From NCBI GenBank assembly GCA_964621195.1, contig CAZULJ010000002.1, positions 83,665-147,664 on the forward strand: 64,000 bases of DNA. The letters run 5' to 3'. Positions 26,371-64,000 of the stretch are shown here, piece by piece. Position 1 is the first letter of the stretch. Every line of letters starts with the position of its first letter. The translations under genes and the position numbers were made by a program. Origin of the DNA: an uncultured Candidatus Saccharibacteria bacterium (GTDB lineage: Bacteria > Patescibacteriota > Dojkabacteria > SC72). The notes under the pieces were generated by a model. It did no database searches. It was not told the origin of the DNA and was given only the letters and a program-made list of their open reading frames with translations.

Positions 26371-26625
26371 ATGAAATATAGTATATCTGTAGATAAGGAT
26401 AATGGTGAAGGAAGCAAAAAGTTTGAGGTGGATTTCTCAGTCAAATATTACTTTCCTCTTACAAAGAAAGACGAAGAAAAAATATACCGTGTTGTTAGAA
26501 TAATAGATTCTCTTGGACAGGATGAAGTAGAGGAAACTAGCGATAAAGATTACAGATTCCAGCATGATGAGGATAGTGGAGAGAATCTGCTAGATGGAGT
26601 AGTAGAAGATTGTACCAAGCTGTAG
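26371..26625 (+). CDS. small acidic hypothetical protein
   Basis: 84-aa ORF, acidic (DEVEETSDKDYRFQHDEDSGENLLDG), in same orientation as neighbours. No recognizable motif. Confidence 0.35.
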   Translation: MKYSISVDKDNGEGSKKFEVDFSVKYYFPLTKKDEEKIYRVVRIIDSLGQDEVEETSDKDYRFQHDEDSGENLLDGVVEDCTKL

Positions 26626-46106: not shown

Positions 46107-47114
46107 ATGAAAAAAGTTGAATACAAAGTAGAGGTTTTTACAGGTATTAGACCATCTGGTGGTCTTACTATTGCTAATGCTATTGGTGCTGTAAACCCTA
46201 TTGTAAAACTACAAAATGAAGAAGAGATAGGTAATACGATGGTATTTGTAGCAGACTTACATGCTTTAACTGATGGTGAACCAAATGAGACACAGGGTCA
46301 TGTATTGGATGTTGTTAAGGACTATATCGCACTGGGTTTGGATCCTAAAAGAAACAGTATATTTGTACAATCCTCTTTAATTCAGGAGATCGGTGAATTA
46401 AATTTATATCTTTCAAGACTAGTAACTATTGCCGAGTTAATGAGAGTACCAACATTAAAGGAGAAGATAAAGAAGGGGCAGAATGAGAGTAATGCCAATT
46501 CTCTTTTAGCTATGTACCCTATTATGATGGCATCTGATATTCTTTTGCAAAGATCTGAGTATGTACCTGTTGGTGAGGATCAGGTTGCTCATATTGAGAT
46601 TACTAGAGTATTAGCACAAAAATTTAACAAGAAGTATGGTGAGACATTACCATTGCCAAAGGTTTTATCCTTAGGTGCACCAGTGAGAGTAAAGTCTTTA
46701 AATGGTAACGGTAAGATGAGTAAGAGTGATCCTAGTGGAGCAATACTGCTTGATGATCCAATAGAAGTATCCCTTAACAAGATTAAGAGAGCTCAGACAG
46801 CATTCGCGAAGGAGAGCTCAGATTCTCTAGATGCTTTAATTATGATTGGTGAGTATGTTTCAAATGAGGAGGAGAAAGAGCAGTTGAAGGGAATAATTAA
46901 GAGGCATTATGAAGGTGAGAATGTTATGGGTGAATTTAAATCTGCTTTGAGTATTCCATTAGAGAGATTCTTAACAGAGTTCCAATCTAAAAAGAATGAG
47001 ATTAGTAACCAGGATATTGAAAAGAAAATTATAGAGGATTGTGCAATAGCGAAAAAGAATGCTCAAGAAACTATCTCTATGGTTCGCAAGGCAATGGGTT
47101 TAAGATATATCTAA
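46107..47114 (+). CDS. trpS: tryptophan--tRNA ligase
   Basis: 335 aa. FTGIRPSGGLTIANAIGAV (TrpRS-type HIGH region), GKMSKSDPSG (KMSKS), typical TrpRS length. Confidence 0.85.
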   Translation: MKKVEYKVEVFTGIRPSGGLTIANAIGAVNPIVKLQNEEEIGNTMVFVADLHALTDGEPNETQGHVLDVVKDYIALGLDPKRNSIFVQSSLIQEIGELNLYLSRLVTIAELMRVPTLKEKIKKGQNESNANSLLAMYPIMMASDILLQRSEYVPVGEDQVAHIEITRVLAQKFNKKYGETLPLPKVLSLGAPVRVKSLNGNGKMSKSDPSGAILLDDPIEVSLNKIKRAQTAFAKESSDSLDALIMIGEYVSNEEEKEQLKGIIKRHYEGENVMGEFKSALSIPLERFLTEFQSKKNEISNQDIEKKIIEDCAIAKKNAQETISMVRKAMGLRYI

Positions 47115-50100
47115 ATCTTTTGAATCTTTAATTTCCTGCTTACAAGCATCTTTCCTTTGGACTCTATTTCTGTATTACCTTCAACAATTTTTACACTGTT
47201 GTCTGTTGTTTCTATTACAAATTCCCCTTTCTCAGAGATATCAAATGAGTACTTTCCATTTTCATCTGTAACTCTCTTTGCAACAATTTTGTCAAAATCT
47301 TTGTCTTTAAGTACCAAGGTAATATTTGAAGCTGGTGTTCCATCGGTATATGTTACCTTTCCGGATTTCTTACCCAAAGAGGTGAAGCTTTTAATCAAGA
47401 CATAGGTTGTTGGTATGTACAGGAGTAGGAGTGCAAGATTTGCTAGGCTTGATTCTTTGTTGTATACGTAGAGTGCTGTAGTTACTCCTGCCAAGAAGAG
47501 TATGCTGTTTAGGAATGGTAGTATCAAAGAGATTCCACTTCTAATTACTGTCAATGTTTTTTGGTTGGAGAGATCCTTTTTGGGATCCATGGGTATTACT
47601 ACATTGATCTCATTTTCTAACAATCTAATCTTTTCTCCGTGGTATACATTTGAAAGTGGGTAGTCTTCTCTTCCAATTATTAATCTTGATGGGAATGAGA
47701 AGTTTCTTTTCTTAACTTCGAGTATGTAATCTCCTGCTTCTAAACCAACTCTAAAGAGACCTTGCCCATCTGTCACACTGGTTTCTACAAGTTTCTCGGA
47801 TAGATCATATATTCTAACTATAGCTTGTTGAAGTGGGGCTCTTGTGACTGAATCATATACATATCCTGATGGGAATCTTTTTCTCCTAAACCCTAATGTA
47901 CTCAGTATATTTATTACAACTTGTGAAATTGAGTATCCAAGCTGTCCAATATTTCCTAGTACAGAGGCTAAACTTACAGATACTGTTACTGCAGTTGTTG
48001 TTGCTGCAACTGTTGTAAGTTGTTCCTGTTCAATATTCCCCAGTGGTGTTTGATCCAAACTCTCAATTGTTTTTGTAATTGCTCCTTCTACTGCTTGGGT
48101 TATTACTTTTGTTACACTACTTTGTGGTGTACTTGTGGGAGTTTCTTTTTCCTGGGTAATAATTACTTCTCCTTGTCCACCAGTTCCTACTAAACCATCT
48201 GCAATCCAATACATTACTCCTGATACGCTTGCTTGGGAGACTGTTACATCAGATCCTTCGACTTTTTGTTTTTGTGGGAATGTCCCAGTATAGAGGACTC
48301 CATTTGGACAATCTTGTGATACTTCTTCTAATGTAGTGGCTTCTGGACATATTCTAAAACCGTTATCACTGTCTTTCTTTACAACATACATTGTAAATTT
48401 GTCTGTTAAACCGTGTGTTTGATTAATTTTAACAACACTCTTTCCCTCGGATGGGGATGATTTGATTATTGCATTACTCCAATCTCTGTTGTCTGTAAAT
48501 GAAATAGGGAGATCGGCGACTATATACTCATCTGTAAGTACCCTTACTTTTTGTGTTCCTGTTTGTGCTCCATCTATAGTACTAACATCTATTTGTGTAT
48601 TATCTACAAGTGCTGTTGTTATTTCTTCTGGCTTGTTTACAATTATGGAGTATGTTTTACCAGTGTTACTCTCTACATAGTTTGTTTCTACATTAGAACT
48701 GTTTATAGCCTTTGCTCTGAAGGAGTACTGAACCCCTGGTTCTAGATTCCTAAATATTATCCCACTAGTACCACCCCAAGAGGTATAGCTTCCCCAGACT
48801 GGACTATCGACTAATGTTTGGGTTGAGTAATCAAGATATTTCCCGCTGTTCTTTTCCTGTATTGCGAATCTAGTCGAGGAGGGATTTGTATTTCTATCAA
48901 ATTTGATCCTACCAGTACTTCCTCCAATTGTCTCAAATGTAAGATCTTTTGGTGTATTTGCCCATGTTGTAACTGTTACATTTTCAGACCATTGAGAGTA
49001 TACATTATCTGAATTTACTGTTCTGACTTTGAATGTATATGTTGTATTGGGTGGTAGATTAGAGAGTGTGAAATTACTTGTTACCCTTGTATCTGTGTGC
49101 AATACAGTACTGTTTGTAAACCTGTTCTCATTATCTATATTACCATTTGTAGTGACTTCCAGTAGTTGGTAGGTAGTATTTGTTGGGTTACCATTCTTGT
49201 TCACAGTGATCTCAATTGATGATGAGCCTGTTACCCTTGTTGTTAATGTAGATGTCTTTGAGAGTGTATATGCACTTAAGCTTTGTGAGCATGGTGTTTG
49301 TATATTTTCAATATTCTTTGCTTTTACACAGAATGTATACAAGGTATTGGGAGATAGGTTTTGAATATTTAACCCAGTAAATCCTCCAATTTCTTCATAT
49401 GTTTTCCAAAGAGTTTGCGATGTCAAAGATGCACTATCTACACTCTTGTTGCTGATTGTTTCTAGAAGATTGTAAAGTGTTGTATCGTTGTTTCCTCCGT
49501 TGTTTACTACTACCTTTACTGTTGTTGTATCAATTGCCTCTACAGATACTATGCTTGGTGAGTTTGAGAGTGTAGTAACAGTTTGTTCTCCGCTAAATGC
49601 AGTATCAACAAGATCGATGTTTTGAGCTTTTGCTCTGAAGGTGTATGTAATATTAGGATTAAGACCATATATTGTAATTCCATCTGTAAGTCCTAGCTGT
49701 GTGTATGTTGAGTAGTAGGGGGACTCTTGTAGTAATTGTGTTTCAGAGTTAAGGTAGAGGCCGGAAGTTTTCTCTTCTATGAGATATTTTGTAACTTCTG
49801 GATTTTCTTTGATATCTATCTTTACTGTTATACTCTCTGCGTCATAGTTTCCTTGTTGTATATCAAATATTGCAGGTGTTTGAGCGAATGTGCTGCCCTG
49901 TACTGTGTTTGAGAAATCACTCTCTGCAATATTGTTGTAGATCTTAAATTTGCGAGTATATGTTGTATTTGTTTGTAAAGAATCCTCTGTACATGAGGTT
50001 ATACCATCACCTAAACATGTTTTAAGTAAATCTCCGCTTTCATTGTAGACTTTTATACCTAATACTGTGTCTGAGTAAGCAGAAATTCTCCATGTTATCT

Positions 50101-53100
50101 GGCTATCTGAATTTACTGTTGGTGTTAAAGCTGTGATATTTGAAAGTGCTGTTGTAGAAGATTGTGTTGCTGAGTAAGCTGTCTCTATGAGATCCATATT
50201 TCTTGCTTTTACTCTGAATGTATATGTAATACCTGATTGTAGTCCAGATACTGTTATTGTAGGTGTTAAACCATCTAAATGTCCCCATACTGGTGTAGGT
50301 TCAAGTAATCCTGTTGAAAGGTTTACATACATTCCTGAGTAAGTTTCCTGTAAGAGGAGCTCTGTGTGGTTGGGATTTGTTTCTTTGTTAATTTGTACAT
50401 CTATTTGTGAGCTGTTTAATGTTGTTGCATTCTCAATACTTGGGACAACTGCTAAGGTCCATGCGGCTACTTCTGAGGAGTAACTTGTTTCTTCCCCTGT
50501 ATAGTTTCGAGCTTTTACTCTAAAAGAGTACTCACTGTTTGGTTGAAGATTGATTGCAACATCTGTAGTACTTTTAACCCAATCTTGTATACCAGTGTCA
50601 CACTCCTCTATTGTGCAGTCAAAGAATATTCCAGAGTCTCCTGCTGATAGATTTTGAACTCCTGTCCCACTAAGCGAAATTGATGTTGTTGAGAGTGGTC
50701 CTGCTGTTAATGTTGGTATTGGTGCGTGAGTATATATATTTAGATCTGTGGAGTAACTTGTTTCAATATTGTCATTGTTTCTAGCTTTTACTCTGAATGT
50801 GTATCCAGTATTGTTTGTTAGTCCTGTTACATTGGCACTGTTTGTTGTTGTCCATGTATTAAGGTTTGTATCACAATCTCCCTCGCAATCAAAGTAGAGT
50901 TCTCCTCCGTTTACTGGCTGAGAGGCCAGTATCGTTATCGATGAAGAAGTTTTACTGCCTTGGTATTGTAGAGTAGGGACAGATATTAATGTGTAGACAG
51001 AATCTGTGTTTGATCCACTACTATCTGCTTCTGTATTGTAAGCTACAGCATATCTAGTATATTGTGTGTTTTCTGAAAGTGTTGTTTCATCGCAGTATGT
51101 AATGTTTTCTCCTGTACATGTCTTAACTAAGGTATTGTCCTGATCATATATCTTAATACCCTGTTCTCCATTTGCGTTATCTGTAAATGACCAACGGATC
51201 GAAGTTGTAGAAAGTGCTTGTCCAACCAAGTTAGTTGGTGTCCCTGGTAGGTCTAATGTTCTAAATGTATTTGTTGCAGACCAATTACTTACTGATCCTG
51301 ATGTATCCCAGAATCTAATTCTCCAGTAGTAAGTGGTTCCATCTTGATTAAGTGTACTACCATTGTAAGTAATTGCTGAGGATCTTAAATTGTTTATGAG
51401 ATTTGGCATAGATATTTGCCCAGAATCCCACATTACTGTTCCAGTAAAAGAGGAGTTTGTATTGACTTCTACTTCGTAGTAATTTGCAGGATCATTGTCT
51501 GCATCAGTGTGTATTGCTGTAAATGACGGAGTTAAATTTGTAAGTTGTGTCGGATTTACAAGTCCATCTGTTTGTAGAGAGGATGGAGCATCAGGTACCC
51601 TGTTCATTGTAAAAGATCCTCCGTTTGTCCAGTTACTTACAGTGTTATTGCTATCCCAGAATCTAATTCTCCAGTAATATGTTGTACCGTTTAATGTCAG
51701 TGGTACACCATTGTAAGGTATATCAGTACTTCTACTTCCACTTGCAATCGGTGTTGTAGCAATTTGCCCCGAATCCCACATTACTGTTCCAGTAAAAGAG
51801 GAATTAGTATTAACCTCTATTTCGTAGTAATTACCTGTGTCTCCATCGGGATCTGAAAAGAGTGCTGAAAATTCCGGAGTTGTGTCGATTACTCTCGTTG
51901 GAGAGAATACACCTTCGACAAATGGTGTTAGAGGAGAGTTCGGAGTTGTATTCATTCTGAAATTTGCAACTGTAGACCAGCTACTTACTGTCCCATGGTT
52001 ATCTGTAAACCTAATCCTCCAGTAATATGTTGTACCGTTTAATACTAATAGTGTCCCATTGTATGGTATATCTGGACTTTTTGTTCCGCTTGCGGTTGGT
52101 GTCATTGCTGTTTGTCCGGAAGACCACATAACGGTTCCTGTAAAGGAGGGGTTTGTATTTACATCTATTTCATAGTATACCCCCATGTCACCAATATCTA
52201 AGTCGTCAAATTCTGCACTAAATTCTGGTGTGAGATCTGTAACTCTTGTAGGATTGTTAACACCTTCTGTCAAAAGGGTTGTTGGAATGCCTGGAGTAGT
52301 GTTCATATTGAAATTCGCGGTAGAAGACCAAGATCCAACTGTACCATAGTTGTCGGTAAATCTAATTCTCCAGTAATATGTGGATCCATTTAGTGAAAGT
52401 GCCGATCCTGAATATGAGACATCAGGGCTTCTTGCTCCGATTGCAATTGAAAGCATTGGTACCTGTCCGGTGTCCCACATCACTGTTCCAGTAAATGAGG
52501 AGTTTGTATTTACCTCTATTTCGTAGTAGCTTGCGGTATTTCCAGAGTTTGGATCGTTAAAGATTGCGCTAAACTCAGGTGTAGTATCTGTTATCCCCGT
52601 AGGATTTGTTGCAGCTTCAATTAAAAGGGAAGTTGGAGCACTAGGTGCTGTATTCATGGCAAAAGTCGCTGTAGATGACCAGGACCCTACGGTCCCATGG
52701 CTATCTGTAAATCTAATTCTCCAGTAATATGTTGTACCGTTTAATGTAAGTGCGATTCCTGTATATGAAAAGTCTGGACTCCTTGAGCCTATTGCTGTTG
52801 AAACCATTGGAACTTGACCAGAGTCCCACATTACTGTTCCTGTAAAAGAGGAGTTTGTATTTACCTCTATTTCGTAGAAATCTGCAGTATTACCAGAGTT
52901 TGAATCATTAAAGATTGCACTAAATTCTGGAGTGGTATCTGTTACACCAACTGGATTTGTAGCTCCTTCTGAAAGTAGTGATGTTGGTGCTGCTGGAGCT
53001 GTGTTCATTGTGAAGTTTGCAACAGATGACCAAGTGCCTACCGCTCCATAATTATCTGTAAATCTAATTCTCCAGTAATATGTAGTTCCATTTAGTGAAA

Positions 53101-53971
53101 GTTCAGTGCCTGCATACGTGATATTTGGACTTCTAGCACCTATTGCCGTGGAAGTCATAGATACCTGTCCAGAATCCCACATGACAGTCCCGGTAAAAGA
53201 GGAATTCGTGTTTACCTCTATCTCGTAGTAAGTACCAGTATTTCCTGCATTGCTGTCATTAAAGATGGCACTAAACTCAGGTGTAGTATCAGTGACTCCT
53301 GTTGGATTCGTAGCTCCCTCTGCAAGAAGAGATGTCGGTGCTGTTGGTGCTGTGTTCACTAATACAAAGGTGGCATTAAAAGAGAGATTCGCTGTGACAT
53401 CGGTTTCAATTCTTGGGTTTGCTGTAGATCCATCGCTCCATTGTGAAAATGCATATCCACCATTTGGAACTGCAGTGACTGCTGTACCATTGCTACCTCT
53501 ACATACCGATTGAGATGTCGTTCCAGAGAGTGTTCCTCCAGCACTTGCTGTATATGTTAGGGTGTACTTTAGAAGCCAGAATGTCCATGTTGTAGTTCCA
53601 CATGATCCACATCCATCATATCTAGTACATGAGTTTGTAGTTGAAGAACAACCTGTGTTTGTTGTTGTATATCCTGATGGGGTAGAAGGTGTGCAGCTAC
53701 CACACGAGCCACAATCAGGTTCGCATATATCACAGCAGTATCCAAACCCAGCATCAAACTCACTTGCATAGCAGCTTACTCTAGATACACATCCCCCTGG
53801 TCCTGTACAAACATTTAGTGGTACATTTGCTTCACACCCACTCGGGCATGTTAATGCTTCTACAGGAGTTGATGCAAAGTTGAGAAAAAAGAGTGAAAGT
53901 AATGATACAAAGAGGGATATTCCAGAAAAAAAGAGTAATCTTCTACTATTATTAGTCTTTATCTTTATCAT
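47111..53971 (-). CDS. giant (2286 aa) secreted cell-surface protein: signal peptide, Cys-rich N-terminal region, 7 tandem 117-aa Fn3-like repeats, further diverged Ig/Fn3-like domains, C-terminal membrane-anchor module
   Basis: Single uninterrupted ORF. N-terminal signal/TM. About 20 Cys in residues 35-140 (CPSGCEANVPLNVCTGPGGC...CCDICEPDCGSCGSC). Repeats TAPxAPTSLL..GATNPTGVTDTTPEFSAIFND...YYEIEVNTNSSFTGTVMWDSGQ...YYWRIRFTD...W. C-terminal LGFRRKRFPSGYVYDSVTRAPLQQAIVRIYD ... DKIVAKRVTDENGKYSF homologous to the C-terminus of 37483..39558. Confidence 0.7.
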   Translation of the reverse strand: MIKIKTNNSRRLLFFSGISLFVSLLSLFFLNFASTPVEALTCPSGCEANVPLNVCTGPGGCVSRVSCYASEFDAGFGYCCDICEPDCGSCGSCTPSTPSGYTTTNTGCSSTTNSCTRYDGCGSCGTTTWTFWLLKYTLTYTASAGGTLSGTTSQSVCRGSNGTAVTAVPNGGYAFSQWSDGSTANPRIETDVTANLSFNATFVLVNTAPTAPTSLLAEGATNPTGVTDTTPEFSAIFNDSNAGNTGTYYEIEVNTNSSFTGTVMWDSGQVSMTSTAIGARSPNITYAGTELSLNGTTYYWRIRFTDNYGAVGTWSSVANFTMNTAPAAPTSLLSEGATNPVGVTDTTPEFSAIFNDSNSGNTADFYEIEVNTNSSFTGTVMWDSGQVPMVSTAIGSRSPDFSYTGIALTLNGTTYYWRIRFTDSHGTVGSWSSTATFAMNTAPSAPTSLLIEAATNPTGITDTTPEFSAIFNDPNSGNTASYYEIEVNTNSSFTGTVMWDTGQVPMLSIAIGARSPDVSYSGSALSLNGSTYYWRIRFTDNYGTVGSWSSTANFNMNTTPGIPTTLLTEGVNNPTRVTDLTPEFSAEFDDLDIGDMGVYYEIDVNTNPSFTGTVMWSSGQTAMTPTASGTKSPDIPYNGTLLVLNGTTYYWRIRFTDNHGTVSSWSTVANFRMNTTPNSPLTPFVEGVFSPTRVIDTTPEFSALFSDPDGDTGNYYEIEVNTNSSFTGTVMWDSGQIATTPIASGSRSTDIPYNGVPLTLNGTTYYWRIRFWDSNNTVSNWTNGGSFTMNRVPDAPSSLQTDGLVNPTQLTNLTPSFTAIHTDADNDPANYYEVEVNTNSSFTGTVMWDSGQISMPNLINNLRSSAITYNGSTLNQDGTTYYWRIRFWDTSGSVSNWSATNTFRTLDLPGTPTNLVGQALSTTSIRWSFTDNANGEQGIKIYDQDNTLVKTCTGENITYCDETTLSENTQYTRYAVAYNTEADSSGSNTDSVYTLISVPTLQYQGSKTSSSITILASQPVNGGELYFDCEGDCDTNLNTWTTTNSANVTGLTNNTGYTFRVKARNNDNIETSYSTDLNIYTHAPIPTLTAGPLSTTSISLSGTGVQNLSAGDSGIFFDCTIEECDTGIQDWVKSTTDVAINLQPNSEYSFRVKARNYTGEETSYSSEVAAWTLAVVPSIENATTLNSSQIDVQINKETNPNHTELLLQETYSGMYVNLSTGLLEPTPVWGHLDGLTPTITVSGLQSGITYTFRVKARNMDLIETAYSATQSSTTALSNITALTPTVNSDSQITWRISAYSDTVLGIKVYNESGDLLKTCLGDGITSCTEDSLQTNTTYTRKFKIYNNIAESDFSNTVQGSTFAQTPAIFDIQQGNYDAESITVKIDIKENPEVTKYLIEEKTSGLYLNSETQLLQESPYYSTYTQLGLTDGITIYGLNPNITYTFRAKAQNIDLVDTAFSGEQTVTTLSNSPSIVSVEAIDTTTVKVVVNNGGNNDTTLYNLLETISNKSVDSASLTSQTLWKTYEEIGGFTGLNIQNLSPNTLYTFCVKAKNIENIQTPCSQSLSAYTLSKTSTLTTRVTGSSSIEITVNKNGNPTNTTYQLLEVTTNGNIDNENRFTNSTVLHTDTRVTSNFTLSNLPPNTTYTFKVRTVNSDNVYSQWSENVTVTTWANTPKDLTFETIGGSTGRIKFDRNTNPSSTRFAIQEKNSGKYLDYSTQTLVDSPVWGSYTSWGGTSGIIFRNLEPGVQYSFRAKAINSSNVETNYVESNTGKTYSIIVNKPEEITTALVDNTQIDVSTIDGAQTGTQKVRVLTDEYIVADLPISFTDNRDWSNAIIKSSPSEGKSVVKINQTHGLTDKFTMYVVKKDSDNGFRICPEATTLEEVSQDCPNGVLYTGTFPQKQKVEGSDVTVSQASVSGVMYWIADGLVGTGGQGEVIITQEKETPTSTPQSSVTKVITQAVEGAITKTIESLDQTPLGNIEQEQLTTVAATTTAVTVSVSLASVLGNIGQLGYSISQVVINILSTLGFRRKRFPSGYVYDSVTRAPLQQAIVRIYDLSEKLVETSVTDGQGLFRVGLEAGDYILEVKKRNFSFPSRLIIGREDYPLSNVYHGEKIRLLENEINVVIPMDPKKDLSNQKTLTVIRSGISLILPFLNSILFLAGVTTALYVYNKESSLANLALLLLYIPTTYVLIKSFTSLGKKSGKVTYTDGTPASNITLVLKDKDFDKIVAKRVTDENGKYSFDISEKGEFVIETTDNSVKIVEGNTEIESKGKMLVSRKLKIQKI
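51030..53360 (-). repeat. in-frame coding tandem repeat, 7 copies, 351-bp period (one copy 328 bp)
   Basis: Recurring AATCTAATTCTCCAGTAATATG anchor at 53061, 52710, 52359, 52008 (variant), 51660, 51332 on the + strand; protein-level repeats more than 70% identical. Confidence 0.75.
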
Positions 53972-54519
53972 TCCTTTTTGTTAATATCTTTTCTTCTCTC
54001 GTTGTATGTACCTAAAAACCAACCTGCAACAAGAAGGATGGGAACCAATACTACAATTATTGCCGTCTTAATATCGATATCAACTCTCTCTGTAACCTCA
54101 TCTTCTTCTCCTACTGTTGTTGCAGATTTAACTTCTTTAACAGAGAGAGTAATTAACTCTTCCTTCTCTCTTTCTCCAACCTTAATCTCAACTGTATGAT
54201 CTTTCTCTTCTAAATTCTGAATACTAAAAAGTACAAACCAATTACCACTAGCATCTACCCTTGTTTCATAGGTCTGTTCTTCTATGTATATATTGATTAG
54301 TTCTTCAGGAGTTCCCAATCCAGCTATTTTTACTGTATCTTGATCGTTTACAGATATTGTCCCACTCTCTACAGAAACATTCTCATTGTTTATGGCTATG
54401 TAATCTAGATTCGGGTGTTTTGTATATGAGAGCTCTTGGGCATTAACGGTATTTATACTGAACAGGAGTAGTGTAAGGGTTAGTAGGTATGTAAAAATAT
54501 TTTTTCTTTCTTTTTGCAT
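53968..54519 (-). CDS. small bitopic membrane protein translationally coupled to the giant surface protein gene
   Basis: 183 aa. N-terminal signal/TM (FTYLLTLTLLLFSINTVNA), C-terminal TM (IIVVLVPILLVAGWFLGTY) plus basic tail. Stop overlaps the giant gene start (ATGA arrangement at 53968-53971). Confidence 0.45.
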   Translation of the reverse strand: MQKERKNIFTYLLTLTLLLFSINTVNAQELSYTKHPNLDYIAINNENVSVESGTISVNDQDTVKIAGLGTPEELINIYIEEQTYETRVDASGNWFVLFSIQNLEEKDHTVEIKVGEREKEELITLSVKEVKSATTVGEEDEVTERVDIDIKTAIIVVLVPILLVAGWFLGTYNERRKDINKKE

Positions 54520-54735
54520 TTATATATATTTAAAAAATATACAGATCTCAAAGTACAAAAAAGATACATATCCTGTAAGTAATTAGGTTGTACTTTTTTC
54601 TTGAGATTTAAAAATATTGACAGTTTTCACTAGTAATAGTTAAACAGAATTTTGTATTCGTATCAACCTTTTGTCTCTCTATCCAACTATGAGATACCTT
54701 GCAATATCCAAGAATTTTTGGTCTAATCTCTAGCA

Positions 54736-55848
54736 ATGAAAAAGATACTTATTGTAATTGGTGATGCTGGTGGGGGGCATATCTCATGTGCAAGGGCTAT
54801 GAAGGAGGCTTTTATTAAAGATTGTAAAGGGTATGACATTGAAATTGTAGATTTATTCAAGCTTTCAAAATTCACTAAATATTACGACTATTTCTATTAC
54901 TTAGTGAGTACATATCCTTTCTTTGAATTCTTCTACAATATCGGATATATGTTAATCGACAAAAGTGCATTTCTTGCAAAGATTTTGGAAATACCTACAG
55001 CGAGATCATTGTACAGACCGACGATGAAACTTCTAAAGGAGAAGAATCCAGATTTGGTTCTTACTAACAGTTGCTTGACTACACTTGTATTGAGAAAGTG
55101 CAAAAAGAAGAGAGATTTCAATTATGTAATAACGGTTTCAGATCTAATACCTGTTTCAAGATGGTGGGCTGATTCTTCTGCAGACATTATTTTCTGTCCA
55201 ACAAAGGATGCGAGTAAGAAGATAAAGGGGTATAATTCGGAGTGTAATACACAAGACTCTTACTATCCATTGAGAGAGGTTGAAAAATATTCGAAAGAGA
55301 AAAAGAGTGAGGTAAAGGAGAGGATCTTTAAAAAGTACAAACTTAAAAGGGATATTCCAACAGTTTTAATTACAGGGTGTGGTATTGCAACTAGAAATAT
55401 TGTTAAGAGTATGGAGGAATTTATAAAGGGGTCTAAGTATCAATTTTTAATTCTTACTGGTAAGGATGAAAGATTGAAAAAGTATCTAGAAAGAAAGTAT
55501 ATAGATGAGAGTAGAGTGTCTGTACTTGGTTTTACAAAAGAAATAGTGGATCTGTTTTACTCTTCGGATATTGTTTTAGCTAAACCTGGACCAGCAACTC
55601 TTCTTGAAATTGAAGAAGTTGGCAAGAGGGCGGTTTTTACAAGAGCCGTTGGGTATCAGGAGTGGGGTAATGTTGAATATTTAGAAAAGAATCCGAACTT
55701 TTCATATGTAGGTTCTAATTACAGTAGTATACCAGCCCTTCTGAAAAGTAATCTTGAAAAGCCTTCTGTGCAATTCAAGAGTACAATCCTTGGGTCTAGT
55801 GCAATTGTAAGTAAGATTAAGGAGTACTACGGACTAAACAAAAGTTAG
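54736..55848 (+). CDS. GT28 family diacylglycerol glycosyltransferase (MGDG synthase/UgtP-like glycolipid synthase)
   Basis: 370 aa. N-terminus MKKILIVIGDAGGGHISCARAMKEAF matches the MGDG_synth N-domain signature (GGGH). Confidence 0.6.
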   Translation: MKKILIVIGDAGGGHISCARAMKEAFIKDCKGYDIEIVDLFKLSKFTKYYDYFYYLVSTYPFFEFFYNIGYMLIDKSAFLAKILEIPTARSLYRPTMKLLKEKNPDLVLTNSCLTTLVLRKCKKKRDFNYVITVSDLIPVSRWWADSSADIIFCPTKDASKKIKGYNSECNTQDSYYPLREVEKYSKEKKSEVKERIFKKYKLKRDIPTVLITGCGIATRNIVKSMEEFIKGSKYQFLILTGKDERLKKYLERKYIDESRVSVLGFTKEIVDLFYSSDIVLAKPGPATLLEIEEVGKRAVFTRAVGYQEWGNVEYLEKNPNFSYVGSNYSSIPALLKSNLEKPSVQFKSTILGSSAIVSKIKEYYGLNKS

Positions 55849-57067
55849 TGCAAATCCTTTTTTACCTGCTCTTCCTGTTCTACCTATTCTATGTATGTAA
55901 TCATCGTAATTTTCTGGCATATCGTAGTTTATTACATGTGTAATATTGTTAACGTCTAAGCCTCTTGATGCTACATCTGTTGCAATTAAGATATTTATTT
56001 GGTCTTTCTTAAAGGCATCTATGATTCTTGATCTTTGTGCTTGTCTTTTATCTCCGTGTAGAGCATTTACCCTAACACCAGTTTCATACAATTTCTTTGA
56101 AAGAGATTCTGCCTCTCTTTTTGTTCTTGTAAAGATTAAGACCTTTTTAAAATCATCTTTCTTTATATATTGAGAGAGTTACTCCAAATTTGTTCTCTCC
56201 TTCTTTGAGTCTAATGACATCTTGATCTACATTCTTACCTGGAGCCTGTTTCTCTACCTCTATCCTTACTGGGTTCTTTAAAAGTGTGTTCGCAATCTCT
56301 TCTGATTTTCTATTCATAGTTGCAGAAAAGAAAAGTGATTGTCTATTTTCGTTTAAGCGGGAAGTTATATACCTAATATCGTCAATGAATACCATATCTA
56401 ACATTCTATCTACTTCATCTAATATGACATTGTTTATATCCTTTAGGTATATAGCACCCCTCTCTGAAACATCCTTTAATCTACCTGGTGTTGCAATTAC
56501 AAATGCTGGATCTCTTCTTAATATCCCAATTTGTGCTCCTATGCTATTTCCACCAATTATTAATACTGATCTAAGTCCTGTATTTCTTGCTAATTGCATA
56601 AATTCATCTTGTATTTGCATTGCAAGCTCTCTTGTTGGAACTACTATTAAAAATCTTTGAGACCTATCCTGTACACCTTTGTTTATCATTGGTATGAGGA
56701 AGGCTGCTGTTTTACCAGAGCCTGTACTTGCTAATCCTAAGATATCTTTTCCTTTTAGTATTTTTGGAATGGCTTCGTGCTGAATCTTGGTAGGGCTTGT
56801 ATACTTTTTAAAAGTAATATTCTTTTTAAGCTCCTTTACCAAGTTAAGTTCTAAAAGATTGTGATCTAATACATATATACTTGGTAGATCTTCGTATACA
56901 GCTTTTGCTATTAGCTGGTTTACATTGATCCTAGTACCTCTTCTGTTATATCCACCGCCTCTTCTGCTATTGCTATATGAGGAGCTTCTATATGAAGGTC
57001 TTCTTCTACTGTTATTTCTATTGTAACGGTCATTATGGTCGTAATTTCTTCTGGAAGTGTTTTCCAT
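55834..57067 (-). pseudogene. DEAD-box ATP-dependent RNA helicase interrupted by a frameshift near 56160-56172
   Basis: N-terminal ORF 56153..57067 carries Q-motif, Walker A ASTGSGKTAAF, PTRELA, DEVD, SAT. C-terminal ORF 55834..56091 carries ALHGD, ILIATDVASRGLD, HRIGRTGRAGKKG. Manual retranslation shows the helicase continues in the +1 frame from ...YKE as KDDFKKVLIFTRTKREAESLSKKLYETGVRV.... N-terminal 60 aa is an Arg/Ser/Asn-rich low-complexity extension. Confidence 0.75.
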
Positions 57068-57278
57068 GTAAGTAAATATTTAATTTTATTTTCAGTTCAT
57101 ATAGAGGTAACCGAAAATAAAAGATATTTAACCTTATGGATTGGGGCGATTATTTCGTTTAAATCTACATCAAACAAGAAGCTATTATAGCACAGAAGTT
57201 TCTGTTTGGCTAATTACTCCTTCTCAATACCATTTGAGTTAGCCTCTTCATAGTCTAAGTAGCCTTGGGCTAGTTCTC

Positions 57279-57521
57279 TTAACTCATTAGGATCCACATC
57301 TCTACTGTTGCAGCATTTCTACCGATTGCCTCTTCCAGTTCTTTCTCTGTTATTATTCCTTTCTTAAACATATTTATACTTCTAGAAGTTGAAGCAATTG
57401 TTCTTTTTTGTCGAACTTCTAAAGAGTCTCTTTGAGTCCTAGGGTTGCCTACATGTGTAGCTGGTTTCTGCTCACCTTGGTACCATTTCGTTCCTCCGTT
57501 TGGGTTTATTATTGTTGGCAT
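57279..57521 (-). CDS. hypothetical small protein
   Basis: 80-aa ORF. Reading is protein-like (NMFKKGIITEKELEEAIGRN) but has no recognizable motif. Confidence 0.3.
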   Translation of the reverse strand: MPTIINPNGGTKWYQGEQKPATHVGNPRTQRDSLEVRQKRTIASTSRSINMFKKGIITEKELEEAIGRNAATVEMWILMS

Positions 57522-57660
57522 ATTATTTCTTTAAACATGTTATTAGAGTACCGATTATATCAAATACCTTTTACTTATGCACTCTTTAAGAATGGGGTTT
57601 GTATCTTTTTTGTTGTGCAGTGTAATATGTATGGATATATTACTTGGTCTTGTACTGCTC

Positions 57661-58641
57661 ATGAAATTAATTACAGGTGCTACTGGTAGGATAGGGTATG
57701 TATTGGTTATGGAGTTAAATACCAAAGGAGAGAAGGTAAAGGTATTGGTTAGGGAGGGTTCTAGTAGGGAATCTTTGAAAAATTTCAATTGTGAATATAT
57801 AGAGGGGGATATATTAGATACTTCAAAATGGGAGGATGCATTGGAAGGAGTTGATACAATATTCCACCTTGCGGGGCATATAAATATATCAAGTAAGGGT
57901 AAGGATTTGACCTTTGATACAAATATTCAGGGTACTAAAAATATTGTAGATTTGTGTTTGAAAAAGGGTATCAATTTAGTATATACCTCTTCTATACATG
58001 CACTCTCTGCGCCCGAGGATGGCTCGTTGATTACAGAAGATACTCCTTCATGTGTAGAGGCTAAAGAGAAGAGAGGTTTGTATGATTGTTCCAAAGCTAT
58101 TGCTACCCAGTATGTAACAGATGCAATGAAGCACGGACTTAAGGCTATTGTTGTACATCCTACAGGTGTAATTGGTCCATATGATATCCGTCCATCTTTC
58201 TTTGGTCGGGGAATGATTGATCTTATTAAATCTGGAGCAAAGGTCACGATCGGTGGTAAATATGATTATGTTGATGTAAGAGATGTTGTAGATGGGATGC
58301 TTCGTGCTTTAGAGAAGGGAAAATTCGGAAAGAGATATATTCTCTCTGGTGAAGTATTGGATATGTTGGACTATGTTAAATATGTCAAAGAGTTTACGGG
58401 TCTCACGAATGAAACAAAAGTTTTAGGTTACACCTTAAGCTTACTGTTAGGATATATTTCATCTCTTTTGAGTAAGGAATCTCAGATTACTCCGTATAGC
58501 GTAAAGACATTGTATAGTAATTGTAATATATCTCATGAGAAGGCGACTAAGGAGCTTGGATATTCTCCGAGATCTGTTAGGGAGTCCCTTTTGGATCAAT
58601 ATAAATGGTTTAAAATTAATGGATATTTAGATGAGAAGTAG
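57661..58641 (+). CDS. NAD-dependent epimerase/dehydratase family protein (extended SDR)
   Basis: Internal ATG at 57661 gives MKLITGATGRIGYVLV (GxxGxxG). Later YDCSKA (YxxxK). 326 aa. Confidence 0.75.
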   Translation: MKLITGATGRIGYVLVMELNTKGEKVKVLVREGSSRESLKNFNCEYIEGDILDTSKWEDALEGVDTIFHLAGHINISSKGKDLTFDTNIQGTKNIVDLCLKKGINLVYTSSIHALSAPEDGSLITEDTPSCVEAKEKRGLYDCSKAIATQYVTDAMKHGLKAIVVHPTGVIGPYDIRPSFFGRGMIDLIKSGAKVTIGGKYDYVDVRDVVDGMLRALEKGKFGKRYILSGEVLDMLDYVKYVKEFTGLTNETKVLGYTLSLLLGYISSLLSKESQITPYSVKTLYSNCNISHEKATKELGYSPRSVRESLLDQYKWFKINGYLDEK

Positions 58642-59346: not shown

Positions 59347-59991
59347 ATGGATAGATTCGAAGCATTAAGAAAAGCTCAGGAGGGTACCCTTGAAAAAACT
59401 CCTTTCACACCTGAAGATCAGCTAGAAGCCGTTTCTAATGCAGAGAAAAATTCTAGAGTTATGACATGTGAGGAGAAAAGGGCAAAGATCCTGAATATGA
59501 TTCTTTTGATAATAGTTTCTGCTCTTATAGGGGTATTTGTATATCTGTTTTTTACAGATAGATTGTTAATAGGTGTTGAGAATCCTCTGTCGAAGGGGGA
59601 GGTTGTGGATATACAGGAGAAGGAAGAAGAGGAGGAGGTCCTCGCGCAGGATCAGGAAGAGTTCCGTTTGTTTAAGAATACAAGGGAGATCTTAGACTCT
59701 GAGGGCAATGTTGTTGGGAATCAAGAGCTAACAGTAAAGTTTTTTACTAACGGGGGGAGATTTGAAATGGATATTCAAAATGCATTAGGTAATGGTGTTG
59801 TAGTAGAGGGCACTTATGTAGAGGAGGCTGATAGGATACTGCTTTCATTTGCGAGTGGTAAATTTGGTCTTGAAACTGATGGCTCACTCGAGTTTAAGTC
59901 TGTATCTGAGGATGGAACTGTTTTAGAGTACTCTGGAAGTGACTTTGGGGATACTCTTCCTGATGAGGGAGATAGATATTTATTGTATTAA
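59347..59991 (+). CDS. hypothetical membrane-anchored protein
   Basis: 214 aa. One TM helix (ILNMILLIIVSALIGVFVYLFF), then an acidic stretch and a beta-rich C-terminus. No motif. Confidence 0.4.
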   Translation: MDRFEALRKAQEGTLEKTPFTPEDQLEAVSNAEKNSRVMTCEEKRAKILNMILLIIVSALIGVFVYLFFTDRLLIGVENPLSKGEVVDIQEKEEEEEVLAQDQEEFRLFKNTREILDSEGNVVGNQELTVKFFTNGGRFEMDIQNALGNGVVVEGTYVEEADRILLSFASGKFGLETDGSLEFKSVSEDGTVLEYSGSDFGDTLPDEGDRYLLY

Positions 59992-61103
59992 TCAATATAT
60001 ATTCTAGGAACCCTTTCGCTAATACCACACAGGAGGTCATAGATAGATCTGTCCGATTCATCGGATATTTTAAATAGGGAGATCTTTTCTCCCCAAAGTT
60101 CGACATCATCTCCTACGTATGCCTCTCCCTGTGGTGTAATATCTACCATGGTTTGGTCCATACAGACTCTTCCTGCTACTGGGTAGAAATTTTCATTTAA
60201 AAATACTTCTCCAGTATTGGATAGTGATCTTGGGTATCCATCGGCATATCCTACTGGAAGAGTTACAATACGTGTTCTTTCCTTTGTGGTGTATGTTCTG
60301 TCATATCCAATAGTTAGACCTTCTTCTAAGACCTTGAAGTAGGATACTTTTGTTTTGAATTTCATCACAGGTTTCAGTAATTTCTGTATATCAGGGTTGT
60401 ATGAGTATCCATACAGCATTAATCCCGGTCTTATCATATCAAAAAAGGCCTCCTCAATATTGTTAAAAACAGATCCTGAGTTACCTAAATGTACTAGATT
60501 AGGAAGAGTATATTTCTCTTCAATGTAACTTAATACACTCTTGAATCTTTTAATTTGTTCTTTTGTATATTCAATATCATCGGTAGAATTGGCAAAGTGA
60601 GAATATATCCCTACAATATTTAAATTCGGAAGAGAGTATGCCTTCTCTACGAATGTTTCTTTCCTATCCCATTGAACTCCTATTCTTCCCATTCCGGTGT
60701 CTATCTTAATGTGTACATTTGCTTTAATATTCATTTGAGTTGCGACCCTTGATATTTCTTCCAACTTTTCAATAGAGGAGCCGGGTATATCGATATCGTT
60801 CTATAGAAAGAGGGGTATCTGAGAATTATCTATTGCCCCTAATACCAAGATTGGAACCTTAATAGAGTTCTTTCTTAAAAAGAGTGCTTCCTCGATATAT
60901 GCCACTCCCAGGTAATCAATCTTAAGGGATTGTAACTTTGTTGCTACTTCTACAAGCCCATGTCCATATGCATTGGCCTTCACAACACCTAATATCTTTG
61001 TAGAACCAATAATATCTCTTACAACTTTAAGGTTGTTTTCCAAATTTGAGAGAGATATTTCGACTCTTGTTGGTCTGTTGTTAAATATTGGATCCTTAAA
61101 CAT
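59988..61103 (-). pseudogene. alr: alanine racemase interrupted by a single in-frame TAG (stop codon at 60801-60803)
   Basis: ORFs 60801..61103 (PLP-lysine motif GVVKANAYGHG) and 59988..60764 (KIDTGMGRIG, C-terminal domain) are in the same frame. Manual translation reads ...QIPLFL-TAG-NDIDIPGSSIEKLEEISRV... with no other disruption. Confidence 0.75.
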
Positions 61104-61107
61104 ATGA

Positions 61108-62103
61108 TTAGGCGTTTTCTATATAGAAGGTGATAAGGTGGGTATAGGATATCCCTATGGCTTGAGCTTCCTGGGGAATGAGTGAGGTTGAGGTCATGCC
61201 AGGGAGAGTGTTTGTTTCAAGATAGTAGATTCTTTCTCCTTGTATTAGAAAGTCTGATCTACTGTAAAGTCTACATCCAAGTATGTTATGTATTTGTGCA
61301 GATATGTTTGAGATTTGTTGTCTTTGCTCCTCTGTAATCCCTATCGCGGGTATTCTTTCTAACGAACCTCCTTTTGTATATTTTGCTTTGTAATCAAAAA
61401 ACTCGGAGCTTTGAGGAATAATCTCTATTGGTGGTAGTTGTAATATTGTATGATCTTTTTTCTCTAAGCATCCACAACTTACTTCAACTTTTTGATCTAT
61501 TAATTCTTGTATTAATATTTCATCTTTATCTTTATGATGTTTGTAAAATTCTTCTAAAAGAGTGTCAATATTTTCTAAGTTCTTAACTACGAAAGAGCAT
61601 ACACTCGATCCGTTTTTGTTTGGTTTTACAAAGACAGGGAGCGATATTTTTGATAAGGTATCTTTGAGATTTATTAATCGAACTAACTGTGTCTTAGGAG
61701 TTAGGATACCTGTTGTTGCATGCACAAGGATACTTGATCTGTATTTATCCATTGCTAATCGGCTCGCATATGAATCTGAACCTGTGAATACAATGCCATT
61801 TTCTTCGAGGTATGTTTATAAGACTCCGTCTTCTCCAAATTGTCCGTGGGTACCAAGTAGTACTGTGTCGTAGGATTTTAATTTTTCAAGTGTTTCTTCA
61901 AGTGAGTACTTTCCTTTTTGTAGTTTGGTGATATCTGTTTTCTGTTTTATTCTTTCAATATTGCTTCTCCTATCTTTTCCGATTATACAAATGCTTACTT
62001 CATATTTTGAGTAATCAATATTGTCAATTATTGATTGTGAAGAAGAAAGGGATGCTTCATATTCGCTTGAGGGGCCTCCACACACTACTATTACTTTTTT
62101 CAT
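61108..62103 (-). pseudogene. ddl: D-alanine--D-alanine ligase interrupted by a single in-frame TAA (stop codon at 61816-61818)
   Basis: ORFs 61816..62121 (N-domain ...LLGTHGQFGEDGVL) and 61108..61752 (ATP-grasp C-domain) are in the same frame: ...GEDGVL-TAA-TYLEENGIVFTGSDSYASRLAMDKY... The stop falls where Ddl homologs carry Gln (E. coli GEDGTLQG). Stop is 4 bp upstream of the alr start. Confidence 0.75.
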
Positions 62104-62215
62104 AGTATTTTGAGTATACAATTGTGTTAAATGAAGGGCAACAGGATATGACTTTACCTTGAAAACACGGGTTTCAAAAACACTTTCGTGTCTTCAAGGT
62201 ATTGTCGTTGTTAAT

Positions 62216-62981
62216 CTACCAATCTTTAGGGTCCCTCCACTCTGGTCTTGCCATAAGGCTGAATTCGCGACCGTTTTCGTCCGCCATAACCAGGGCACAT
62301 GGAGAGTTGGGGTTTCTTTCCCATGTCTGTGCTTCCAGACCGGAATTGTCGGCAATGAACTCAATCCATGCGCTCCGGGTCTGAAGTAGCTACATCCCAA
62401 TGCAATCCGGGGGTCCAATCGTTAGGCCAGAGCTGATGCTCTACCCAGTAGATCCCATTGGGGGATCGATTGGTCCGAACGGGGATGTAGTTCCTCTCGT
62501 GGTCTGGCGCTGGCTTTGGTTCTGCCCAGGTCTGGTACCGTTCTTCGTCGCGCTGAACCGCAAGGTTTCGAGCATCCCTATCAGGGTGGCGGAAGCCAAC
62601 GTGATGGAAGCGAACCTCATGGTCCATGCTCCAATAGCGAAGGAGAGCAAACATAAGATCGATCTGATCATTCTCCCATGCAGAGCATGAAACGATCAAA
62701 TGATCCTCGCGATAGCCTCCAGCCCAGGGGCGGCCCTCGTCAAGAGGGGTCTTGCTGATTCCTCGCTTGTTCCCTCCAGCAAGGAGAGAAAAAGCCTTCC
62801 AGGGTCCATACATTGCTGGTCCTGGGTTTGATCCGATGCCTCCCGCCCACTGCGCAGAAAATTCTGCTACGTCATAGCCTGTGTGATCGGCCTCGATAAA
62901 CGTGACGTAAGTGGGCGTTCCTGCTGACCCAAACATAAGGTCAGCAAGGTTATACGTACTGCGAAACTGATCGAGAATCAT
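62216..62981 (-). pseudogene. GC-rich (~55%) foreign gene of unknown function, frameshifted near its 3' end
   Basis: Strong SD GGAGGAAAAC before ATG at 62981. 206-aa frame ends ...HWDVATSDPERMD*, but another frame stays open from there (...RSAWIEFIADNSGLEAQTWERNPNSPCALVMADENGREFSLMARPEWRDPKDW*) to 62216. Base composition is sharply different from the rest of the window. Confidence 0.45.
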
Positions 62982-63080
62982 GTTTTCCTCCGAAAAAAGG
63001 TTTTGGTGTTTTACACCTACTGTTAACGAACAAAGAGGTTATACTATAAGACAAAAATAGAGGCAAGAAACCCTTTCCTG

Positions 63081-64000
63081 ATGGACCTTTCCACTCGCTA
63101 TGTAACCTTGGCATATGACGATGTATATGTTAATCTGGAAGATAGAATGAAAAATGCTCTCAAAATGAAATTTGATGCTTGTATAGACAGAAAAATAGTA
63201 CTAAAAAGAATATTAACAGTGGTATCTTTGTTTGTTATTTCAGCCCTATCTAGTAGCTTTGCCTTTTCCGCAGAGCTTTCGGTTCAAGGTGATTCTGAAT
63301 TAAGGTCAGGTACTCTATTTAATGCAAGAGAATCTGAAAATGGTACAGGAGTAAAGCTTGAATCCGATGGGACATGGGGAGCATTAACTTGGCAGACTCC
63401 TGATAAAACTTTGGGAGTTGGTTCTGCTTTTACATCTGATGGTGAGTACATTTATGTGGTTCGTGGGCTTGGAGATATATTACTCTGGAGATACTCATAT
63501 CAAACAGATAGCTGGGATACTCTTACCAAGATGCCATATGGTGCATATTACGGATCTGACCTACAGTACTTAAATGGATATCTGTACGTTCTTTTCGGTG
63601 GATATCAAAACTCTTTTGCTAGATATTCTATTGCGGATGATAGCTGGGAGATATTAACTGTTTATCCTGAATTGGTATTTCAGGGGGCGAGCATGGCTAC
63701 GAATGGTACTGATATTTTTGTTATTACTTCAAACAATACTCAAAGTTTCTATAGATACTCTGTAGCAAATGATTCTTGGATTTCTCTTACAGGTGCGCCT
63801 GGCACATTAAGAACAGGCTCTGATTTGGAGCATGTAGGTGGGTATATATATACTCCCAGAGGGAACAATACGAATACTTTCTACCGATATGAGATATCTA
63901 CAAATACATGGGCTACGATGGCAAATATGCCTGGTACTATGAATGATGATGTAGATATTACTAGTGCAAATGGATACATATATGTTGCAAGGCAGAACAA
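63081..64000 (+). CDS. Kelch-repeat beta-propeller protein with N-terminal signal peptide (3' end beyond window)
   Basis: Open frame to window end. Hydrophobic signal (ILTVVSLFVISALSSSFAFSAE; alternative start ATG 63147). At least four repeats of the GxYIYVxxG...YRYxxxxDxW Kelch-like pattern. Confidence 0.55.
   Translation, partial: MDLSTRYVTLAYDDVYVNLEDRMKNALKMKFDACIDRKIVLKRILTVVSLFVISALSSSFAFSAELSVQGDSELRSGTLFNARESENGTGVKLESDGTWGALTWQTPDKTLGVGSAFTSDGEYIYVVRGLGDILLWRYSYQTDSWDTLTKMPYGAYYGSDLQYLNGYLYVLFGGYQNSFARYSIADDSWEILTVYPELVFQGASMATNGTDIFVITSNNTQSFYRYSVANDSWISLTGAPGTLRTGSDLEHVGGYIYTPRGNNTNTFYRYEISTNTWATMANMPGTMNDDVDITSANGYIYVARQN

Follow-up and report, generated by a model that had tools for sequence, protein, structure and literature searches.

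The window analysed here is a stretch of 64,000 nucleotides (nt) from a 158,534-bp contig of a metagenome-assembled genome (MAG) held at NCBI. Its closest named homologues come from candidate division WS6, or Candidatus (Ca.) Dojkabacteria, within the candidate phyla radiation (CPR, Patescibacteria), and its G+C content is ~34%. At its right-hand end lie two adjacent cell-wall genes, ddl (D-alanine--D-alanine ligase, Ddl) and alr (alanine racemase, Alr), each interrupted by a single in-frame stop codon. These stops are probably genuine, very recent loss-of-function mutations in one Ca. Dojkabacteria strain, and ddl and alr are here most likely fresh pseudogenes. Recent inactivation is favoured because relatives have sense codons at both sites, because neither gene has decayed further, and because the same two genes are disrupted in parallel in related genomes. 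Both stops, and an extra G in the gene upstream of ddl, are known here from the assembled MAG sequence alone.

The interrupted genes

The first-pass annotation had described ddl and alr as adjacent genes 4 bp apart, each with one in-frame stop in an otherwise open frame, and had placed the TAA of ddl at a conserved glutamine, one step from CAA. Translation bears out this description: the last base of the ddl stop codon is 61108 and the ATG of alr is at 61103, and Q96 is invariant among 14 aligned Dojkabacteria-type Ddl sequences. The reference for codon ancestry was L004 (Logan SRR33038822), an independent assembly of a sister strain that has identical gene order and 96.9% identity to the window between 54000 and 64000. 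L004 reads CAA at the ddl site and GAG at the alr site and encodes an uninterrupted Ddl of 331 amino acids (aa) (P0121) and an uninterrupted 371-aa Alr (P0127), which answers the annotation's call for a check of orthologues in sister genomes. One detail was revised, as ddl starts not at a TTG at 62121 but at an ATG at 62103 (MKKV..., matching homologues). The coordinates of all features are collected in Table 1.

Table 1. Coordinates of the interrupted genes, their lesions and associated features of the window
Feature	Position	Strand	Description	Basis
ddl (D-alanine--D-alanine ligase, EC 6.3.2.4)	61108..62103	-	331 codons, one internal stop	translation, Pfam
in-frame TAA, ddl codon 96	61816..61818	-	ancestral CAA (Gln), C>T on coding strand	L004 alignment
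alr (alanine racemase, pyridoxal phosphate (PLP) fold type III)	59988..61103	-	371 codons, one internal stop	translation, Pfam
in-frame TAG, alr codon 101	60801..60803	-	ancestral GAG (Glu), G>T on coding strand	alignments
gene upstream of ddl, VOC/glyoxalase-fold protein	62216-62981	-	+1 frameshift, extra G at 62367 (G to GG)	
divergent block relative to L004	61140..63004	.	~10% nucleotide divergence; covers ddl and upstream gene	mismatch density
weak sigma-70-like promoter match	62113..62141	-	possible operon promoter	9/12 consensus positions
DEAD-box helicase, frameshifted	55834-57067	-	frameshift near 56165-56175, adjoining CTCTCT run	

The ddl frame runs to a terminal stop at 61110-61108, and the internal stop stands in the context ...GEDGVL-stop-TYLEE.... 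The Pfam matches to Dala_Dala_lig_N (PF01820, E = 2.8e-20) and Dala_Dala_lig_C (PF07478, ATP-grasp, E = 2e-37) span the TAA, and the intact sister protein P0121 aligns to solved Ddl structures (3r23, 2dln and others, with E values down to 1.8e-44). Of the 90 columns that are invariant in the 14-sequence alignment, 89 are retained and Q96, now the stop, is the sole loss. The frame of ~331 aa expected of Ddl is broken at this codon, and NCBI lists pieces of 95 and 214 aa. The 214-aa "Ddl" in public databases begins at Met118. Against L004, synonymous divergence (dS) over the whole gene is 0.45 and the ratio of non-synonymous to synonymous divergence (dN/dS) is 0.06; the corresponding values are 0.48 and 0.03 before the stop and 0.44 and 0.07 after it.

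In alr the terminal stop is at 59990-59988 and the TAG, in the context ...IPLFL-stop-NDIDIPG..., breaks the expected frame of ~371 aa at codon 101. Matches to Ala_racemase_N (PF01168, E = 3.5e-64) and Ala_racemase_C (PF00842, E = 4.8e-41) span the TAG, and the intact sister protein P0127 aligns to solved Alr structures (4y2w, 1sft and others). The translation has both VVKANAYGHG, the PLP-lysine motif, and GYADG, the catalytic-tyrosine region, whose catalytic roles we take to be established for Alr. GAG is found at the alr site in six assemblies (L004, L005, L008, L009, L010 and L096). Comparison with L004 gives a dS of 0.034 and a dN/dS of 0.10, and over 1116 nt just 3 sites differ from the nearest strain (L009/L096), namely the TAG, one more single-nucleotide difference and a 1-nt deletion on the side of L009/L096. 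The 248-aa "Alr" deposited in public databases begins at Met124.

Each lesion is thus absent from close orthologues, which have CAA and GAG, as is the case for unitary pseudogenes. No decay is seen beyond the stops, and therefore the stops are either very recent or not real. A six-frame scan of the window for long open segments split by a single stop gave no further interrupted gene of this type; a TAG at 26623-26625, considered as a third case, is the ordinary stop of a small gene that happens to share its frame with the flippase gene following it.

If it is real, the Q96stop change truncates Ddl to 95 aa, after the N-terminal domain, and the whole ATP-grasp part would be lost. E101stop would likewise truncate Alr to 100 aa, after about three strands of the PLP barrel, removing the rest of the barrel together with the C-terminal domain that carries the GYADG catalytic-tyrosine motif. 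To judge from the sequence, neither truncated protein should be active. As the fragments lack the catalytic parts, no D-alanine (D-Ala) or D-Ala-D-Ala would be expected from these two genes, and the strain would be unable to make the D-Ala-D-Ala needed by MurF.

Disrupted alleles in relatives

Other lesions in alr were found in related genomes. L009, L010 and L096 (~99% identical to the window) keep GAG at codon 101 and have a 1-nt deletion (AAA>AA) near codon 26, which shifts the frame. In L005-L008 (~95% identical, from at least 9 samples) the 5' end of alr is replaced by unrelated sequence: 49 unrelated nt stand before codon ~91 (the equivalent of window position 60832), and all contigs end there. 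This junction may be an insertion, a deletion or a rearrangement. The 49-mer was not found in the window, in the other loci examined or in IMG/VR; the segment (positions 1-49) has a perfect hairpin, CACATT-TAT-AATGTG. In another lineage, L102-L104 (Alr 65% identical, 7 contigs), alr is frameshifted at codon ~262 by the loss of one A from a run of nine (A9>A8) and sits directly upstream of an intact murB. The pieces of this alr (L102:3001-4117) are of 262 aa and 57-59 aa. By analogy with known cases, the L102-L104 allele might keep partial function through transcriptional slippage.

The lesions in ddl are larger. In a second species, ddl codons 1-117 are missing from L001-L003 (three samples) together with two upstream genes, and L093-L095 have an intact ddl (P0133). 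In a third, a 287-nt deletion removes ddl codons ~3-100 in L014, the GTDB representative MAG, and in P0163-P0171, amounting to at least 15 contigs, one of them of 146 kb, and at least 7 protein variants; intact alleles occur in L098-L101 (P0015, P0161). This deletion is flanked by ATGAA(A/G)A microhomologies, one located at the start codon and the other at codon ~100 (L014:9975-10025 compared with L098:1284-1600). The remnant has joined, in frame, an open frame upstream of it, giving annotated proteins of 257 or 277 aa with a novel hydrophobic N-terminus.

As a control, 90%-identity clusters of nine neighbouring genes of the window were examined and no lesion alleles were seen; short members were found only on contigs of up to 1.7 kb (edge fragments) or resulted from one start-codon difference. 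The ddl-alr operon is intact in other Dojkabacteria (L105) and Alr occurs widely across the clade (57-73% identity), so both genes are normally kept rather than accessory. Two further candidate truncations were discarded: P0027 is cut at a contig edge, and P0301 has a mis-called start, its alr being intact in L105.

These alleles bear on the idea that the split genes still work, the fragments, or the C-terminal ATP-grasp piece of Ddl alone, having kept or gained a function. Three species do keep an uninterrupted C-terminal Ddl reading frame (214-277 aa) after loss of the N-terminal third. The truncated allele of species 3 exists as 7 sequence variants with no further stops, and its C-terminal part has a dN/dS of 0.14 against the intact allele, based on only 9 synonymous and 5 non-synonymous differences. 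However, most of this divergence is probably older than the deletions, so the low dN/dS proves little. The N-terminal domain of Ddl contributes to substrate binding in solved enzymes, which also counts against working fragments. Moreover, no pair of fragments in the window would include residues 97-117, the internal ATGs are not preceded by a convincing ribosome-binding site or promoter, and the alr lesions fall at three positions (codons ~26, ~91-101 and ~262) with no common fragment conserved. We regard working fragments as very improbable.

Because independent lesions recur in the same two genes, some of them in several samples, we infer relaxed selection on an endogenous supply of D-Ala-D-Ala in these bacteria, which depend on hosts. 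A host or the community might provide D-Ala, the dipeptide or muropeptides, or another gene elsewhere in the genome might substitute; alr would be left with no remaining role once ddl was dead, and would follow. A wider proposal is that endogenous synthesis of D-Ala and D-Ala-D-Ala is conditionally dispensable in Ca. Dojkabacteria, with null alleles that recur and segregate with intact ones in several species, or else that the C-terminal fragment of Ddl has a function of its own. This is offered tentatively, as a possibility on the doubtful side. If dispensability of this kind is true, episymbionts would obtain D-Ala-D-Ala or ready-made muropeptide from their host or community. Provided that the stops are real, the supply of D-Ala-D-Ala in one CPR lineage would depend on hosts or the community, a testable dependency that could guide cultivation, with D-Ala-D-Ala or D-Ala as a supplement, and studies of host interaction.

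No report of ddl or alr loss in the CPR was found in the literature searched. Nor did that literature yield an account of null alleles at ddl and alr recurring inside species of a single CPR class; gene inactivation through point mutation is already known from reduced genomes.

Error, readthrough or loss

A number of observations weigh against genuine loss, and most of them would equally be expected if the organism had an intact ddl and alr and the two substitutions and the extra G had arisen artefactually where the MAG was thinly covered or mixed between strains. This NCBI MAG is the only source of the TAA, the TAG and the extra G, and the fragment proteins P0024, P0128, P0122, P0126 and P0134 have no other source. 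A scan of Joint Genome Institute (JGI) metagenomes for the alr site gave a single match, with GAG and a 1-nt deletion, so that GAG was the sole allele and the TAG allele was not found there. The corresponding scan of IMG/VR for the ddl site gave no match. Signs of relaxed selection are missing from the genes themselves: each has one lesion and no second, and purifying selection appears strong otherwise (dN/dS 0.06 for ddl and 0.10 for alr). Three adjacent genes with one lesion each and no decay is also the pattern of a locally poor consensus. Of the three lesions, both the TAA and the extra G fall within the hypervariable block at 61140-63004, which is hard for assemblers and where coverage of the haplotype may be low, and the extra G lengthens G to GG. 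Ddl is, besides, normally essential. Finally, L009, L010 and L096, among the relatives with a disrupted alr, are possibly from the same reads, and one of them has a k-mer coverage of ~2.

Nevertheless, we consider it rather unlikely that the lesions are artefacts. About 55 kb of the same contig is without a disrupted gene, except for a helicase frameshift that is common to other assemblies. As an estimate, ~1/20 of random substitutions gives a stop, and two nonsense errors would therefore imply many silent ones, yet alr differs from that of L009 by two substitutions. The TAG falls outside the variable block, and the two substitutions differ in type. The annotation had raised C to T damage or sequencing error for both genes; this fits the change of CAA to TAA in ddl but not that of GAG to TAG in alr, which is a G>T transversion. 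Error would also leave it to chance that relatives have robust lesions, seen in multiple samples, in these very genes. The lesions specific to this assembly (60802, 61817 and 62367) all lie within 1.6 kb, an arrangement with a calculated chance of ~0.002 for three events scattered uniformly over 64 kb.

Systematic basecalling error at CTAG or TCTAGA was also considered, since the change from GAG to TAG destroys such a site, and was rejected: of 26 CTAG sites in common with L004, 21 are retained and the lost ones fall in divergent patches, and the window still has 159 CTAG sites. If the stops were errors after all, MAG annotation would have turned single-base errors into four deposited fragment "proteins" (P0024, P0128, P0122 and P0126). 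P0134, which arises from the frameshift at 62367, is likewise deposited as a separate protein.

The third possibility is that full-length Ddl and Alr are still made, a suppressor tRNA or programmed readthrough carrying translation past the stops. The frames do stay open past both stops and a suppressor tRNA could lie in the genome outside the window. However, the stops are not conserved, orthologues having sense codons. TAA, TAG and TGA all terminate genes in the window (31, 18 and 6 genes, respectively, of those of at least 100 codons), and the genetic code is therefore the standard one; global recoding had rightly been judged unlikely at the outset. A search for suppressor tRNAs with CUA or UUA anticodons had also been proposed, and within the window it yields nothing, tRNA-Lys(CUU) being the sole RNA gene detected. 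No RNA structure beyond that of shuffled controls was seen 3' of either stop (z-scores of +0.97 and +0.23). As the two stop codons differ and replace Gln in one case and Glu in the other, two suppressors would be required, and UAA is the least leaky bacterial stop. Readthrough would also be unable to rescue the alleles of the relatives, because those are frameshifts and deletions. That either protein is made in this way is barely credible.

Among the three options put forward in the first-pass annotation, therefore, recent inactivation is the best supported, C to T error suits ddl only and readthrough is unsupported. The surprise expressed there at the loss of D-Ala-D-Ala synthesis is tempered both by the recurrent loss of ddl and alr in the clade and by the pseudogene load of the CPR. 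Pseudogenes amount to ~5-10% in the CPR MAGs that have been analysed (PMC11188291), and the 4 disrupted genes among the ~62 of the window fall inside this range.

Surrounding genes and known systems

Some 50 further genes, between 1 and 55 kb, have full-length Pfam matches and no splits. They include a rhamnose/glycosyltransferase polysaccharide cluster, SecA, RecO, an M23 peptidase, a TrpRS/TyrRS-type synthetase, NDK and UDG. The surface-glycan locus (3283-37480 and 47111-53971) is apparently intact, with GT2 and GT4 glycosyltransferases, rmlABCD-type dTDP-rhamnose genes, an ABC-2 exporter, a Wzx-like flippase and a Bac_transf priming transferase, as is a 2286-aa surface protein with Ig, fn3 and CarboxypepD_reg repeats in the same region. 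Disrupted genes are confined to the right-hand end where, beyond ddl and alr, they are the gene upstream of ddl and a DEAD-box helicase. The helicase is split into a DEAD piece of 304 aa and, in a different frame, a Helicase_C piece of 85 aa, and a related Dojkabacteria contig (L105) encodes an intact protein of 393 aa. The split is common to L004 and L005 and is therefore older than the stops in ddl and alr.

In the gene upstream of ddl, removal of the G at 62367 restores an open reading frame of 254 aa, 13 codons shorter than in the sister strains. The family has ~99 representatives (E<=1e-3). Searches of Pfam and of PDB sequences gave no match for it; the AlphaFold2 model (pLDDT, the predicted local distance difference test score, 94.4) gave distant Foldseek matches to methylmalonyl-CoA epimerase and glyoxalase folds, and conserved His, Glu and Asp residues suggest a metal site. 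The protein is Trp-rich and the surrounding 2 kb has a G+C content of ~43.5%, compared with ~34% for the genome. With only this distant VOC/glyoxalase fold and no Pfam or PDB sequence match, the gene was rejected as part of a D-Ala module, and it is not homologous to the PP2C-like gene that precedes ddl in species 2. Sigma-70-like sites are rarer in the region than in shuffled sequence, and the promoter match of Table 1 is weak evidence.

Divergence from L004 is mosaic. It is practically zero over 54000-57500 and 63000-64000, and several neighbouring genes have a dS of 0, against 0.45 for ddl and 0.03 for alr. The block covering ddl and the upstream gene has a dS of 0.45 and a dN/dS of 0.06-0.12, and it looks like an allele acquired by homologous recombination with a diverged lineage, as far as can be judged from the alignment. 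Smaller divergent patches lie at ~57500-58000 and 59600-60050. A step in identity at ddl is also seen between L098 and L014, which are 98% identical upstream and 87% identical from ddl onward.

An in-frame stop inside a conserved gene is likewise a feature of programmed readthrough and of stop reassignment (selenocysteine, pyrrolysine, codes 4 and 25). The present stops differ from these in that they are not conserved, they replace Gln and Glu, no recoding element or suppressor tRNA was found in the window, and TAA, TAG and TGA are all in use as terminators. Frameshifts in poly(A) tracts of endosymbionts are reportedly rescued by transcriptional slippage (Tamas et al., in 2008, are said to have described this). 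The alr lesion of L102-L104, a 1-nt loss in an A9 tract, is of this kind, whereas the lesions in ddl and alr of the window are substitutions to stops and beyond such rescue.

Laboratory alr dadX or ddl mutants are auxotrophs for D-Ala or D-Ala-D-Ala that are rescued by external supply, and Black Queen-type loss of a leaky function was reportedly set out by Morris et al. in 2012. Loss of ddl and alr would resemble both in being tolerable where neighbours or a host supply the product, and in the co-existence of intact and null alleles. It differs in that an uptake system or an external source is here proposed by analogy only.

The closest parallel may be with the unitary pseudogenes that arise from nonsense or frameshift changes during the reductive evolution of host-dependent bacteria such as Buchnera and Blochmannia (PMC9116674; PMC4389277), and with the pseudogene load of CPR MAGs given above (PMC11188291). 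The lesions in ddl and alr differ from these in being younger, with no detectable relaxation of selection (dN/dS 0.06-0.10), in appearing to segregate within species beside intact alleles, and in affecting genes that are normally essential for making the precursors of peptidoglycan, which this clade is believed to have retained. In common with them, a single disabling point mutation lies in a conserved gene whose orthologues are intact in close relatives, the genome is small, and the same pathway is lost in parallel among related lineages.

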